Below, one piece after another: positions 43,463 through 51,893 of a stretch of DNA of 64,000 bases. A program made the translations under genes and the position numbers. The stretch's first letter is position 1; every line of letters starts with the position of its first letter. The notes under the pieces are model-generated. The model did no database searches. It was not told the origin of the DNA and saw only the letters and a program-made list of their open reading frames with translations. Origin of the DNA: a virus. The DNA is taken from IMG/VR virus record IMGVR_UViG_2919367315_000001, positions 46 to 64,045 of that record. One strand, 5' to 3'.

Positions 43463-44311
43463 CTACTGATATTTTGCAATAAACTTTTCCAAGTCAATAC
43501 CTTGAATAGCCACAATATCAAGAGTTAATTGTTGAACATTTAATTTCTCCTGTTCATTCCATAAATCCACTTCACAATTTATCAAATGAGTTATAATCGC
43601 GAAAAACGATTTAAAGTACACGCTCAATGATGTGTTTAGCGAAAAATCATTTAACTTTTCATCTGCTAAATAAGTAGTGACACTAAATCTTATCTCTTTG
43701 TCTGACTTTTCATATTCATGGATGTAGTTTCCCAAAACGCTATAATCCGAATGTTCGTACTTACTGGATTCCATATAATAAGTTTGATACATCAGAGACA
43801 GTTGCCTTGATGTTTTTGATAAAGTCGAAATGCTGAGAGGTCTTAAAGCTTCAGGTTTAGCGGAGAAGCCTTTGTCCTCCAGTTCTTTTCCAACATCTTT
43901 TATCATCTTATTGAGATTTCTGTATTCTTTAGCTCGCTCTTCAGGGAACCACCCTTTTTTTAGAGACCTTTTTATATTGAGTAGAAAATTCAAATGATTC
44001 TTGAGGGGTTGTACAGTGAATTCCTTTAGTTTTTTACCATCTTTGTCATCGAGCAAATAGTGAATTAGCATGCAATTATTCAAGAGAGATCGAAAGAGAA
44101 TAACAGCTTCTTCTCCCAAATTTTCTTGATAAAGAAGTATGATACTTTCAAGTAGATTTGTTTGCTTTGCAAACAGGGCCATGACGTGAGGGAGATAAGG
44201 ATATTCTTTGGGAGCCCTTATAACCACTCCCTCCCTCAATAACAAAGTAGTTATCTTCTTGATTATTAGATTGATATCATCTAATCTGTTTTCCTGCATA
44301 TAACATCGCAC
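43463..44311 (-). CDS. DUF5677-like helical protein (HEPN-like)
   Basis: EAVILFRSLLN...YYMESSKYEHS pattern. Confidence 0.55.
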   Translation of the reverse strand: MRCYMQENRLDDINLIIKKITTLLLREGVVIRAPKEYPYLPHVMALFAKQTNLLESIILLYQENLGEEAVILFRSLLNNCMLIHYLLDDKDGKKLKEFTVQPLKNHLNFLLNIKRSLKKGWFPEERAKEYRNLNKMIKDVGKELEDKGFSAKPEALRPLSISTLSKTSRQLSLMYQTYYMESSKYEHSDYSVLGNYIHEYEKSDKEIRFSVTTYLADEKLNDFSLNTSLSVYFKSFFAIITHLINCEVDLWNEQEKLNVQQLTLDIVAIQGIDLEKFIAKYQ

Positions 44312-44540
44312 CCTTTATATAATATGTAGACAATTAATTTCCCCTTATTGTAACACCTCCAATACTAGGAATCATCACTTGTATATTACTAAGGAGCCCC
44401 GGTAACTTTTATTGCATATTCATACTAATCCTTACTACATCCGTTTGTCTTTGCCCCGCTCGGGACTTCATTCTCTGGCCATCTACACTCATCACCAAAG
44501 TATTGTATAATAAATCCAGCACAAAATAGGAGGGTATTAT

Positions 44541-44771
44541 ATGAGTAAATACGATCCTCTAGAAAACTATTTGAAAGGGATTACGGTCACTCTTTCATAC
44601 ACCGAAATCGAACAAATTCTTGGTTCTGAACTTCCTCCTACAGCATATGAACGTGATCAGTGGTGGGCAAACAACACAAACAACCATACGCAAGCACGAT
44701 CATGGCTCAATGCTGGTTGGAAGGTAAGAACGGTTGATCTAGGTAAGAGCGTTACATTTATCAGAAACTGA
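44541..44771 (+). CDS. Small conserved protein (DUF7662-like)
   Basis: SKYDPLENYL...EIEQILGSELP...WWAN...SWLNAGW. Confidence 0.7.
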   Translation: MSKYDPLENYLKGITVTLSYTEIEQILGSELPPTAYERDQWWANNTNNHTQARSWLNAGWKVRTVDLGKSVTFIRN

Positions 44772-44803
44772 TCATAATATTTTAAATAAAGGAGGCCAAC
44801 ACT

Positions 44804-45040
44804 ATGACACATGAAGTTAAGACTGACTCTTCTAACCAAAAATTCATTGAAGTAGAGACAGTGAAAGGAGTAGAAAGTCTACGAATCACTTATGTTAAAG
44901 ATGGATTTACAGGAAGCCCTTGTCTACGACTTAATATTCGACCACACGGTAAATCTCCTCGACCAGGTCCAGAATTTGATCTGGAGTATACTCCAGAGTT
45001 TCTGTCAGCGATTACTCAATTACTTATTGAAACCAAGTAG
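44804..45040 (+). CDS. Hypothetical protein
   Basis: RBS aggagg; terminator at ~45044-45075. Confidence 0.7.
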   Translation: MTHEVKTDSSNQKFIEVETVKGVESLRITYVKDGFTGSPCLRLNIRPHGKSPRPGPEFDLEYTPEFLSAITQLLIETK

Positions 45041-45277
45041 GTAGCTGCCCCTGCATTTAAACGCAGGGGTCTTTTTTATGTTGAGTTGGTTTCCGCTAAT
45101 CGGGTGGGCGGCTAACAGGCTGTCAGAGCGAGTGCATGCCCTTTCTCTGCCATCTGGTGCACTCCTTCCGGCATTCCCGTATAGAAGGAAGAACGCTCAA
45201 AACGACTCATATTTTGTTGTATGAGGACAAAAGAAAAAGCACCGAAAGGGGTGCTCTTGGTTCGTTTTATTTAATTA

Positions 45278-45523
45278 TCAAAAACTCTCAGCTCCCGACT
45301 CAACAAACTCTATACCTTTAGCTGTGAGCCGTAATTGGTAACCACCAACACCTTTAACATACTCTAAATTTATCAATCCTTTATCAGCAAGATAGTGATA
45401 ATTAATTAGAACAATGTCTCTCGGGTTACCCAAATCAACAGATACTCTTCCTGCACTATAATGCGCATCATATGTGTTACGCATAATTGCCAATCTATCC
45501 GCTTTATTTTTTTCGATATTCAT
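45278..45523 (-). CDS. Small winged-helix-like protein
   Basis: YHYLADKGLI...LRLTAKGIEFVE. Confidence 0.65.
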   Translation of the reverse strand: MNIEKNKADRLAIMRNTYDAHYSAGRVSVDLGNPRDIVLINYHYLADKGLINLEYVKGVGGYQLRLTAKGIEFVESGAESF

Positions 45524-45707
45524 TTATAATTCACCTCCCACAACATTACGAAAACGTGTCAGGGATATTTTACCTCTTTTGTACAAGCGGGTCGAGAAAA
45601 AAACTGACATACTCCATCCCATCTACCCTATACACAACCTTCGTATTTCTTCGGCTGTTTTAACTGGCGTCTTTTGGGTATTATAAAAAGCCGCTTATTT
45701 GAGCTAC

Positions 45708-45938
45708 TCAGTATTGTTTCCCTTTGTAATCTTTTAGTGTACCCCATACTATCTCTTTCAAGTCAGAATGTTCTTCAGGTAATTCAACATCTGTGAGGGA
45801 CTCTAAAAATAATCCATGAAGGAACTCTTGTGTTTCGAAAAATTGCACAAGCGTCAACTCTCCAACTTTTAAAGTATAACGAATATTGTGTACATCCAAA
45901 TAATCCAATTTTAAAACATTATTAATCCTCTCCAACAA
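45708..45938 (-). CDS. Hypothetical protein
   Basis: ORF with RBS gggaggg. Confidence 0.6.
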   Translation of the reverse strand: MLERINNVLKLDYLDVHNIRYTLKVGELTLVQFFETQEFLHGLFLESLTDVELPEEHSDLKEIVWGTLKDYKGKQY

Positions 45939-46062
45939 ATAGCCCTCCCTATTTATAAATTGCCCTAATTATTACTTTCTCCTAAACACTTTACCATGCA
46001 AAAAAATCGCCCGTACCTGCTGCCTTAAATATGCTCTTTTCTTTGATTAAAAGCATTTGTAC

Positions 46063-46591
46063 TTAATTACTCCTACTATCTTCATTGGAAAATTGATGAA
46101 CTAACTTTTTTAACCTTTCTTCAATGAGCGGCTTCTTCCTGAGTTACTCAATGCCTCAATTAGAAATTCATTGATCGCGGAGAAAAAAGCGTTAATTAAA
46201 GCTTCAACGGAAACCATAACAAGCGTTTCGTCAATATCCGGCTTATAGATTACATCCATTGCTGATCTATCCATATATCCAATTTGTCTACAGTTTTCTC
46301 GTTTCAAAAAGTCGGATTCAGAACTATATGTATGAATAATTCCACAACGAGCAGCATATAATTCGGTTCCAGTTATCTTTTCCATAGATTTGAATTTCAA
46401 ATATCTATCACACCACTTAATGAAATCATTCCTTCCCGATACTGTTTGCCCACATGGAATATCAAGAGCTGCCATTGCATCAATACCTGAGTAAATTAAA
46501 ATAATAGCAGCTCGAAATGACTTATTTTCATAACACATTATGATATCTTTTTTATTCCGTTATCAATTACATTAATTAATGGATCGTTCAT
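46063..46591 (-). pseudogene. Hypothetical protein with two apparent single-base frameshifts
   Basis: MNDPLINVIDNGIKK continues in another frame at an A6 run (~46550); natural-looking end KKPLIEERLKKLVHQ is in a third frame (~46135). Confidence 0.55.
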
Positions 46592-46885
46592 AAATACTTC
46601 TATAATTATCACCTCTATTTAAAATATTTAGTTATATTCTACACTAATGATAACCTCAATTGCATAATAATTTAATAAAATCATTTATCAAGTCAGCACG
46701 TTTAATGATTGAATCTCAACTGAAACTATTTTCTGAGATTGCCATCAAAAAAGATTAGCAATATTAACCCGACCTGATCACCGAAGCAAAATGCTGCATT
46801 ACATTTCTTCTGGATCTTCCATGTCATAAATTTACCCGTTCAGAATACAATTGCGGGATATATTCAAATATTCAGTCATTTGTGA

Positions 46886-48013
46886 TCAATACTTAAACGA
46901 GTGCGAACTCTTTTTGTTACTATTTAAATTTGTAACACTCCTCTTAAAAAGAAAACCATGTTGTATTTCTGTTGTATATAAATCATAAGATTTCGCTAAC
47001 CCCGGAGAGCTAAACAACGCATCATCAATCGGATTAGCAGCAAAAGGATTCAAAAATAAGTGTAATCCATCAATAAGACTTTCTTTATATTTTGTATGAG
47101 GAACAACTTCCGTCAACCCTTCCGGTCCAAAGCTATTAAATTTATAGGTTTCAAAAAATATATCTTTTTGCTTATTCGGTTGCATTGCTCTCACCTTACC
47201 AAAAGAAGCAACCGAACTAAACAAAACTCCACTTATATGGCTAAATTTACTATCATTAAATATCCCTATTGGAATGCGAGCACCAGTGCTCTTCTTAATA
47301 ATATGATCAGATACCTCGTAATGAGGTTCATCTCCTCTATATTCTGCCTTCATCAAACCATATAGGACACGTTGAATTGGGGCAGAAGCTTGATAATAAA
47401 AGAGAGGTTGTTCGTAAGCCCCAAGAGCAAGTATAAATGGCTTTCCTTTTACGTGCTCTAGCATTGAATAGCTTTTTATATACTTATTAGATTTATTAGT
47501 GATACTGTTTGAAATTCTTTCTGTAGCTGTGTGCACTATTTCTGAGTGTACTCTCTCCGCTTCTTCTTGAGACATTGCTATATTTTTCAATAATTCCACT
47601 GTCTTTACACCATTATATTCTGGAGTACCATCCTGAGAATGCTGTGTAGTTACTGCCTCTACTATTATATTTTTTTTATTTTTGGTAATAAAAAAGTCGG
47701 GAGCTGAGTGACCATAATCAGTAGAAAAACCAAAATTCCCAAATGTCGCATGTAAATATATTTCCCAAAAACTCGAATTAAATGTTGTTTGGAATTCTTT
47801 CACAAATTTATTATCTCTATCACTAAAACCCAATAACCAGCCTTTTAAAACCTTTTGGGCTTGTGGCTCATTAAGAATAGCTTTAAAATTGGGATGAAAC
47901 AATTCCTCACTAACTACTGGCGTAAACAGATCAACTATAGCTTCCACTCTCCTTTTGTTATAACTATCGGATTTTAAATAAGAATAATTCACTAGCTTAA
48001 TTAATTGAATCAT
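46886..48013 (-). CDS. Putative PD-(D/E)xK nuclease-fold protein ('glycosaminoglycan attachment site' annotated family)
   Basis: FVKEFQTTFNSSFWEIYL...APDFFI...IVEAV. Confidence 0.55.
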   Translation of the reverse strand: MIQLIKLVNYSYLKSDSYNKRRVEAIVDLFTPVVSEELFHPNFKAILNEPQAQKVLKGWLLGFSDRDNKFVKEFQTTFNSSFWEIYLHATFGNFGFSTDYGHSAPDFFITKNKKNIIVEAVTTQHSQDGTPEYNGVKTVELLKNIAMSQEEAERVHSEIVHTATERISNSITNKSNKYIKSYSMLEHVKGKPFILALGAYEQPLFYYQASAPIQRVLYGLMKAEYRGDEPHYEVSDHIIKKSTGARIPIGIFNDSKFSHISGVLFSSVASFGKVRAMQPNKQKDIFFETYKFNSFGPEGLTEVVPHTKYKESLIDGLHLFLNPFAANPIDDALFSSPGLAKSYDLYTTEIQHGFLFKRSVTNLNSNKKSSHSFKY

Positions 48014-48091: not shown

Positions 48092-49549
48092 TTATCTTTT
48101 TACTGCCACACTACCTATTGATGGAAGCATAACATGTGTATCTGGTTCCATTAAATATTCTCCGAACGTCAAAACAAAAGCGTCAGCTCTGTCTGGAGAC
48201 TTAAGCCCACGCTTTTTCATATCCTTCTTACTTTCAAGCAGCATTTTACCTTTACTGGTCATGTTCCATTTACGTGCTGTAAGTTGGGTTATTAGAACAT
48301 CGTCATCAGGCAATTGTAGAACGCTCATATCTCCATTTATGAAATTACTCATATTCTGTTCCAATTGATCCTTAATAGATGCCCACATTTCAGTAACTAG
48401 GTTCCCATAGTGCTCATCTAATGAAGAAGAGCCATTGTTAATTGGGATGATTTCATATGGTAGCCCTTCTTCAGCTACAATTTCATTAAGTCGATCTGTT
48501 ACGCCTCCGCCTACTCCGCTATCATCCACTCTTATTCTGATTCTGTTCAGATATGGATGAGAAACATGTAGCTCTTTAGCTAGATTAATCACCCACCCCG
48601 CAGTTACCATTGTGTCTTTCTTGAAATGATGATGTTCTCCTACAACTCTTGGCCCTATACCAGCAAACATTGAGGTTTCATCATCACCAAAACGCGCAAC
48701 GTCAACGCCCATAGTTAGCATATCTCCGCTGGGTTCCAGCTTCACTTCTTTAGCTGCGAATTCAGCCACTTCCAACGAAATAAATGTATCCGATTCTCCA
48801 CGGGGAAATTCACCTTCAACCCGGACTCTCCATACGTCACTGCCTTCACCATATTTACGCTTGAGCATGGCGATATTATCCTTGCTGGTTCTTGGACTGT
48901 CCAAGCAGGATACCTTGCGTGTTTTATAATCCGCTCTATCCTTATTGTGTGAATCATAAAAAACACCCGACGTTTTTGTCGGGTTACCGCACATCAATAT
49001 TTTATTAAACTCACCGGACAACGTACCTAAAATGGCCTCCATGATTGGATCGGCAACACCTGAAGCTTCATCCACAATGAAAAGCATGTAGTCCTCATGG
49101 AAGCCCTGCATATTCTCAGGCTTGGTAGCTGTCCGAGCTGTAGCAAACCAGCGTTCCTCATAGTTCTTCATGTAGATTTTGGTCTTAGTCCATTTGAGAA
49201 TCCGTTTTAATACCGGACTTTTAGATTGCCATTTATTAATCTCAGCCCATAACACGTCATGTAGTTGCTGTCTTGTAGGAGCTGTACAAATCACTTTTGG
49301 ATAAGGGAAACAGGACAGAAACCAAAGGGCTGTTGCAGCTTCCAGCCCAGTTTTTCCTACGCCTTGACCTGAACGTACTGAAACGCGCGGATTATTAGCT
49401 AAATCCATTAGAGTGCTTGCCTGCCAATCATCAGGATAGAACTTAAGCATTTCTTGACAGAACAATATAGGATTCTTACGGTACTCAGGAATCCGTATCT
49501 TGAATGCTTGAAGCCTCCGTTTCGTCTCCGGCGAGTCCTTCGTCTTCAT
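48092..49549 (-). CDS. terL: Terminase large subunit
   Basis: [10 protein letters not shown] Walker A, FIVDEASG Walker [15 protein letters not shown] and SPDRADA nuclease motifs. Confidence 0.95.
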
Positions 49550-50774
49550 TACCTACCACCGCCTCTACCCAATCATCAATTAGATCGTCTTCTGTATTGC
49601 CTTCTCCCGTGACCTTTGCTCTTTCAAGTTCAAGTTTCTCACGCTGCATCTTAAGTTTTTCGTCCTCAAGCATCCGTTTATGTTTGTCTGGAAGCAGATC
49701 CATGTATTTTGTCAGTACGTCCAAAGCCTTTGTTTTATCGTGAAGCTTAACACTTACGCCATCCTTGCCCTGCTTTACTTCTGAAACTAGCGTGCCGTCA
49801 ATTTCATCACTGTTTTTAAAAGCAACAAAATTATATCTATACTTCTTATTGTCTCCAGTGTCAGGATCAAAGACCGGTTCTCCTTCCAATCCAAGAACAT
49901 CTTCTTCCTTCTGACCAAATTCTACGTAATCTGTAATGTCTGCAAAAGCTATTTTCATGTACTCCATCAGTACGCGCTGAGCATTCAATCCTATCTCATC
50001 AATCATAGATTCCTTATGCTGCCGAATAATGTTTTGAATTTCAACTTTCTTCAACAGAGCGAAACCGATCTGATAGGCAGTTTTTTTACTGTATCCCGCC
50101 GCAATGGCTGACCTCGTGGCATTGAAGTCTCGAAGGTACTCATAAGTGAATATCCTTTGCTTAGGCGTTAATCCATCTTCATCAGGAATTTCAGGTTCCA
50201 GTTCTTCAACAACAATTGGAACGCTCTGTGCTTTTTTGGAACGTTCCATATTACCGGAGCGTTCCGATACCTTTTTCGGAGCGTTCCGTATTTCTGGAGT
50301 AGCAACTTTTAGTTCTTTAGAGAGCGCATCAACTGTAAGTGGGGTAGCATATACCTCTCTTGGCTTATCACCTTGATATGTACCAATGAATTTGCGCCGC
50401 TCCATTTCATCAATCAGTCGGGCCGCTCTGCTATAACCTATCCTCATTCTTCGCTGCAATAAAGAAACCGAGGCTTGTTTGGCCTCGGCAACAATTTGGA
50501 CAGCTTTTAGAAAGAGCTCATCCGAATATGATGTTGGTTCTTCATCTTCATTTGGAGGTTCCTTTTTTTGATCAGTTTCATTCCCATCGGAACCTTCCGT
50601 ATGTTTTGCTTCTCCAGCAAGTAAACTCTCCCACTTATCTTTTGCCTTCCATCCTCTTACCGTACCTTCAGATACACTAAGTTGAGAGGCTATATCTGTG
50701 AGACGTATGTTGCCGGAACTGGCTTTGTATAAATCAAATGCTTCGTCCCGTTTCGGATCTCTCTTTCGTCCCAT
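49485..50774 (-). CDS. terS: Terminase small subunit with internal FtsK-gamma domain
   Basis: N-terminal HTH ([12 protein letters not shown]); [25 protein letters not shown] (FtsK gamma); LTPKQRIF...[12 protein letters not shown] (Terminase_2). Confidence 0.9.
50218..50287. repeat. Four GGARCGYTC(C) repeats inside terS
   Basis: ggaacgctct 50218, ggaacgttcc 50238, ggagcgttcc 50256, ggagcgttcc 50278. Confidence 0.75.
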
Positions 50775-51602: not shown

Positions 51603-51893
51603 GTTTATTGCCTCCTAAAATAGTTTTAATTTGTTCCTGAATAAAGTGTAAATCCTTTCTACTCCGTACCTACTACGGATTTACATAGTTCCTACTGTCA
51701 GCAGAAGCTAAAGTATTAGGCTGAGTGTCTTTATTCCATGCAACCTTTCGAATTGTCATACCGCTAGACTCCATAAAATAAGTTTTAGACTGACCTTAGA
51801 AATTGGAACAGCGACAACCAAGGACGAGAAAATAAAGTCCTAGACTGTCGCTGTTCCATTGAACTAACGTTTCCCGTTAGCGTAATGAGACTG

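Follow-up and report, generated by a model that had tools for sequence, protein, structure and literature searches.

[quoted passage not shown] Both phages package DNA by the headful mechanism, and their pac cut maps upstream of terS, at a distance of about 4.5 kb; for gamma, the authors proposed two roles, one in reading KOPS/SRS-like sites of the phage's own DNA and one in binding to host SRS, the latter leading to generalized transduction (PMC8190038). The proteins (accessions QIQ61202.1 and QGF21705.1) are 254 aa long, with gamma at the extreme N-terminus, ahead of Terminase_2, and no PF10668 helix-turn-helix (HTH); in GenBank, Sam112 gp1 is annotated as "FtsK gamma domain-containing small terminase subunit". 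A second group of small terminases, from the Bacillus phages phi4J1, PM1 and 0105phi7-2, lacks gamma and consists of a PF10668 HTH and Terminase_2 in about 290–325 aa. In SPP1 and SF6, whose G1P small terminase is also of the Terminase_2 family, the pacL-pacC-pacR sites lie in and around gene 1.

The stretch of DNA analysed here, a 64-kb window that makes up most of a 71.7-kb IMG/VR provirus, encodes a 429-aa small terminase (P0001) that resembles both groups in part. As in Sam46 and Sam112, gamma lies N-terminal to Terminase_2 in one polypeptide, and the host is an endospore former of the Bacillales; the Sam112 protein is 35% identical to P0001 over a stretch that runs from gamma through the linker into the beginning of the core (7e-24). 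As in phi4J1, PM1 and 0105phi7-2, a PF10668 HTH and Terminase_2 are present. Unlike the two-domain proteins of Sam46 and Sam112, P0001 holds gamma internally, as a cassette with a further DNA-binding module on either side. The fusion of gamma with a small terminase was thus already published in 2021, and P0001 is a three-domain, cassette-type variant of it.

A three-domain small terminase in a Paenibacillus prophage

P0001 belongs to the PHROGs terminase small subunit family phrog_2606 (2.4e-86), and three Pfam families, the Phage_terminase HTH, FtsK_gamma and Terminase_2, exceed their cut-offs in it (Table 1). The Terminase_2 score of 155 bits against a cut-off of 26.1, and the position of terS directly upstream of terL in the head-morphogenesis module, both identify it as a small terminase. 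The FtsK_gamma profile, a check that the initial annotation had proposed, gives 89.2 bits where the cut-off is 30.6, and a six-frame search of the provirus record recovers the same gamma, at the position given in Table 1, with 93.9 bits. The domain aligns end to end with the gamma of E. coli FtsK (2j5p, 2.5e-11), and the segment also aligns with the solved gamma of P. aeruginosa FtsK. AlphaFold2, run on a 33-sequence alignment, predicts residues 1–52, 83–157 and about 200–390 as separate confident modules, with disordered linkers at 55–82 and 158–191. The HTH block has a pLDDT of about 87 over residues 11–50; the gamma block, with a pLDDT of about 86–88, has helices at 85–98, 103–110 and 114–126 and a short beta wing, which, together with the 2j5p alignment, gives it the three-helix winged-helix fold of FtsK_gamma. 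In the Terminase_2 core, AlphaFold2 and Pfam place a helical DNA-binding part, oligomerization helices and a beta-barrel. The winged helix that had been read from the sequence between the N-terminal HTH and Terminase_2 is therefore borne out by Pfam, by the 2j5p alignment and by AlphaFold2 alike, and the order of HTH, gamma and Terminase_2 in the single reading frame is confirmed.

Table 1. Features of the terS-terL region; positions are those of the 64-kb window
Feature	Length or residues	Position	Strand	Remarks
terS, small terminase subunit (P0001)	429 aa	49485..50774	-	single ORF; three DNA-binding-type modules
N-terminal HTH, Phage_terminase PF10668	aa 1-52	50619..50774	-	Pfam aa 1-50, 5.7e-20
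Linker 1, acidic, disordered	aa 53-82	50529..50618	-	pLDDT <50
FtsK_gamma winged helix	aa 84-143	50346..50525	-	Pfam PF09397, 1.4e-25
Linker 2	aa 144-201	50172..50345	-	one helix (145-157), then basic disordered stretch
Array of four near-palindromic 10-mers, GGAACG[CT]TCC		50218..50287		candidate pac / TerS-binding site
Terminase_2 core	aa 202-379	49638..50171	-	Pfam PF03592, 2.6e-45
C-terminal tail, coiled and acidic	aa 380-429	49488..49637	-	low pLDDT
terL, large terminase subunit	485 aa	48092..49549	-	phrog_2 8e-49; phrog_5902 1.2e-80

The gamma of P0001 is of the same winged-helix family as that of FtsK and SpoIIIE (2j5p; 2ve8 and 2ve9 of P. aeruginosa; the FtsK of Paenibacillus, about 890 aa), and the background statement of the initial annotation, that gamma reads KOPS/SRS, is correct. 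TerS gamma and the FtsK gamma of Paenibacillaceae hosts are 66–71% identical over 62 aa, and their recognition helix, RIGY[S/T]RAARLID, is nearly identical. In E. coli FtsK we take N1296, R1300 and E1303 to be the recognition-helix residues that contact KOPS; the residues aligned to them are S/R/D in P0001 and T/R/D in the FtsK of Paenibacillus hosts, so that P0001 resembles the hosts at these positions. The wing of P0001 differs from the host FtsK wing, ARGVIGPYEGSKPREVL. Unlike FtsK, P0001 has no membrane domain and no FtsK_SpoIIIE ATPase motor (PF01580) that Pfam could find, and its gamma would sit on a terminase ring, not on a hexameric pump; the NCBIfam FtsK model matches it at residues 83–145 only. 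NCBI names some homologues as FtsK/SpoIIIE DNA translocases; the name "cell division protein FtsK" is a misannotation, corrected here for the several members of related clusters, themselves terminases, that bear it.

The closest protein relatives of P0001 all come from the Paenibacillus polymyxa group, and we regard the protein as the small terminase of a pac-type prophage of this group that probably packages by the headful mechanism. Its C-terminal tail is presumed, by analogy with other small terminases, to contact TerL. The terL gene, which gives weak Terminase_6N and Terminase_3 matches in Pfam, overlaps terS by 65 nt, and the gene for a major capsid protein E lies downstream of the pair. 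About 4.6 kb of low-GC cargo (window 43463–48013; GC 0.33 over 46–48 kb) separates terL from the presumed portal gene; insertions are not usually met at such a site, where this one interrupts the module for packaging and head formation. It holds a gene for a DUF5677 protein (43463–44311), roughly 1.8 kb with only ORFs of less than 90 aa (44312–46109) and two ORFs of 142 aa (46110–46538) and 375 aa (46886–48013) that have no Pfam match. On the other side, upstream of the late genes, the edge of a cassette array is the site of a 22-nt inverted repeat (51804–51858; TGGAACAGCGACA... / ...TGTCGCTGTTCCA) with 86% complementarity and an 11-nt loop.

Distribution of gamma and selection upon it

A survey of the fusion across relatives, as the initial annotation had suggested, found the order HTH, gamma and Terminase_2 in 77 of the 121 closest protein clusters, whose hosts are Paenibacillus, Brevibacillus and Cohnella; 36 have the HTH and Terminase_2 without gamma, and 8 are N-terminally shorter. 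The 201 Paenibacillaceae species genomes that were searched have a single FtsK-length ORF with a recognizable gamma apiece, and about 15 of them have extra copies of gamma, which in the genomes inspected belong to prophage TerS in every case but one. The exception, a 471-aa ORF of P. brasilensis (L077; G207:C46:19921-20091) with a weaker gamma match of 54.6 bits, is the third gamma-bearing ORF in its genome and is neither FtsK-length nor a prophage TerS. Bacillus subtilis carries two FtsK-type translocases, SpoIIIE and SftA; the second translocase of the Paenibacillaceae either lacks gamma or has a diverged one.

When gamma was searched against 1.84 billion representatives, 15,094 matches were obtained. 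The best 150 of these are mostly small proteins with tandem gammas and FtsK-length proteins, and include only two TerS, both already known, too few to serve as a survey of further TerS families. Most of these closest relatives (P0122–P0269) are small, at 150–260 aa, and bear two or three gamma domains in tandem. Among the 69 mid-size proteins (200–520 aa) in the best 150, other domains found were FtsK_SpoIIIE (6), TIR_2 (4), Mrr_cat, NA-iREase1 and DUF4236 (3 each), DnaJ (2) and Schlafen (1). These combinations fit a gamma that behaves as a portable DNA-binding module, and they would fit a DNA reader that is widely reused in defence-like proteins.

Against six diverged orthologues, the dN/dS of gamma is 0.05–0.15, similar to that of the HTH (0.04–0.25) and the core, whereas linker 1 is nearly neutral (0.65–1.5); at least 30 positions of gamma are invariant or nearly so among 33 homologues. 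These values indicate that gamma is under purifying selection, which implies that it has a function, though not necessarily one in packaging. At the same time, the domain is often gained and lost. On a tree of 112 TerS, built from the HTH and core columns only, the presence of gamma switches 11 times, and at least seven of these switches are forced by well-supported branches. One pair of relatives, P0041 with gamma and P0073 without it, is 84–90% identical except for one clean indel, some 240 bp long, that sits directly after the HTH, and terL adjoins terS in both. Judged from these comparisons, gamma in TerS is a facultative cassette, functional yet optional. A tree of 99 gamma segments from TerS, host FtsK and long representatives (61 columns) has six changes, one of which is forced by starred branches, and is compatible both with one capture of gamma by TerS and with several.

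Candidate recognition sites in and around terS

We searched for GAGAAGGG and GGGNAGGG as the canonical SRS/KOPS, from which the motif of Paenibacillus itself may differ, and both are absent from the 64-kb window, where 1.8 and 4.1 copies, respectively, would be expected. Variants with one mismatch do not cluster near terS, and canonical SRS/KOPS were rejected as the pac site. In 10 related prophage loci GAGAAGGG occurs at about host density, its exact copies showing no conservation of position. No G-rich octamer is conserved near terS across seven diverged gamma-bearing loci, and the only octamers or nonamers common to these seven terS regions come from a palindromic motif and from a coding-constrained stretch (EYMKI).

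The palindromic motif, GGAACG[CT]TCC, forms an array of four copies within terS, where the DNA encodes the disordered linker that follows gamma. Their starts are at 50218 (with one mismatch), 50238, 50256 and 50278, at spacings of 20, 18 and 22 bp, and a fifth, degenerate copy lies ahead of gamma, within linker 1 (50589–50598). Allowing one mismatch, terS holds the sole cluster of this motif in the 64-kb window, with one lone site elsewhere, and a search of 797 kb from a related host finds the motif in pairs only within the two prophage terS genes. The array is exactly kept in terS genes of Paenibacillus, Cohnella, Brevibacillus and P. thiaminolyticus whose proteins are 49–92% identical, and its spacing is conserved across genera at 22/18 or 23/28 bp. 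Its copies are read in different frames, as R-N-A-P, as E-R-S and, in the relative L018, in the third frame, and the synonymous divergence of linker 2 is below that of the Terminase_2 core; together these point to a constraint on the nucleic acid and not on the peptide. The position of the array is reminiscent of SPP1 and SF6, where candidate repeats also lie inside terS at about two-helical-turn spacing, but in P0001 the repeats are 10-bp palindromes of different sequence.

Gamma-less prophage siblings from Paenibacillus and Brevibacillus (P0073 and L016–L018; 49–90% identity) share this array with P0001, unlike the gamma-less Bacillus phages phi4J1, PM1 and 0105phi7-2, in which it is absent, as it also is in the terS genes of Sam46 and Sam112. 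Its presence in L016–L018 means that its reader is not gamma. The contig of one of these siblings, L018 (DASQNU010000228.1), is labelled as a Candidatus Bathyarchaeia archaeon MAG; it has a gamma-less terS of the Paenibacillus type (49% identity) with the same palindrome, and probably stems from a bacterium or phage and was binned wrongly. Its position and conservation make the array the better pac candidate. It could equally act as an RNA structure, with a role at the level of the mRNA, or serve as the operator of another protein. As RNA, the copies pair with one another (window 50205–50315, minus strand; MFE -29.7 kcal/mol), and the z-score of this fold is -3.0.

Possible roles of gamma

The reading that we prefer, with a probability of about 0.5, is that gamma is a selected but dispensable accessory module, and that the array is read as the primary signal by the HTH domain or domains shared with the gamma-less relatives. 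In this scheme the gamma cassette would sit in frame within a flexible tether between the HTH and the ring-forming Terminase_2 core. By analogy with G1P of SF6 and SPP1, the core would form a 9–10-mer ring, from which disordered linkers would hold out 9–10 copies of each of the three DNA-binding modules. The phage's own DNA would then be recognized primarily at the GGAACG[CT]TCC array within terS, through the HTH domain or domains common to the gamma-less relatives, while gamma, as a further reader of the FtsK type, would recognize short DNA motifs and may thereby modulate the choice of DNA for loading by the terminase, and perhaps also the orientation of loading.

The initial annotation, like the 2021 paper before it (PMC8190038), had offered pac recognition as one possible use of gamma. 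The N-terminal domains of small terminases normally read pac, and gamma is the sole N-terminal DNA-binding domain in Sam46 and Sam112, but for P0001 this proposal is weakened by the array conserved in the gamma-less siblings, by the at least seven gains or losses of gamma, by the existence of nearly identical TerS without it and by the lack of any conserved KOPS/SRS-like motif near terS. The first three of these observations lead us to conclude that gamma is not the primary pac reader, and that it reads pac at all we consider improbable. A different possibility is that gamma reads the polar FtsK/SpoIIIE motifs of the host, so that the terminase would load on the chromosome and cause frequent, possibly orientation-biased, generalized transduction. 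The recognition helix is almost that of host FtsK gamma, and GAGAAGGG is absent from the prophage window and strongly strand-skewed in a related host, where 797 kb contain 28 copies on the leading and 5 on the lagging strand; the same proposal has been published for Sam46 and Sam112 (PMC8190038). A scan for skewed octamers in 797 kb of P. ottowii, however, found many skewed purine-rich octamers and no single winner that could be taken as the Paenibacillus motif, and the host-like density of GAGAAGGG in related prophage loci does not favour such loading either. It is also hard to see what benefit a phage would draw from packaging host DNA that would be sufficient for purifying selection, and we therefore hold this explanation to be unlikely.

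Gamma could also act on the host itself, as a decoy on KOPS/SRS or on a partner such as the Xer recombinase, and so disturb FtsK or SpoIIIE in division or sporulation. All hosts seen (Bacillus, Paenibacillus, Brevibacillus and Cohnella) are endospore formers, gamma is host-like, and in this prophage an array of Xer-type cassettes lies just upstream. A tether within a protein of the late structural module would, however, be an odd design for a takeover factor, and a link of gamma to the Xer-type array was rejected: the site core lies upstream of terS only here and in two P. ottowii copies, occurs in only 2 of 12 gamma-bearing loci, with both copies from one genome, and is absent from the other 10. 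Interference with the host is in our view very improbable. If exchange between terS genes by recombination were the main reason that the cassette persists, with little contribution to the phage, its frequent gain and loss would be accounted for, and copies of the palindromic motif do flank the gamma segment (terS nt 177 or 200, and 488–528). The copy at nt 177 shares its reading frame with those at nt 510 and 528, so that recombination between it and either of them would give in-frame deletions. The low dN/dS of gamma and its near-invariant recognition residues, kept over long divergence, speak instead for a maintained function, and it seems improbable that recombination is the main reason for its persistence.

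Whatever gamma reads, dozens of prophages carry the cassette while close relatives do not, and one sister pair, the 84–90% identical P0041 and P0073, differs only by it. The candidate pac array is common to forms with and without gamma, which makes possible a clean comparison of the start and direction of packaging and of the uptake of host DNA. It is a doubtful possibility that gamma makes the terminase read the polar FtsK/SpoIIIE guide motifs of the host chromosome, so that prophages with gamma take up host DNA at a higher rate and with a constant direction along the origin-terminus axis, or that they block the host pump at these motifs; if this were true, natural pairs of sister phages that differ in the cassette would amount to an inbuilt switch that sets how often, and with which polarity, transduction occurs. 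Any effect of gamma on the uptake of host DNA would bear on how genes are transferred among Bacillales of soil and plants.
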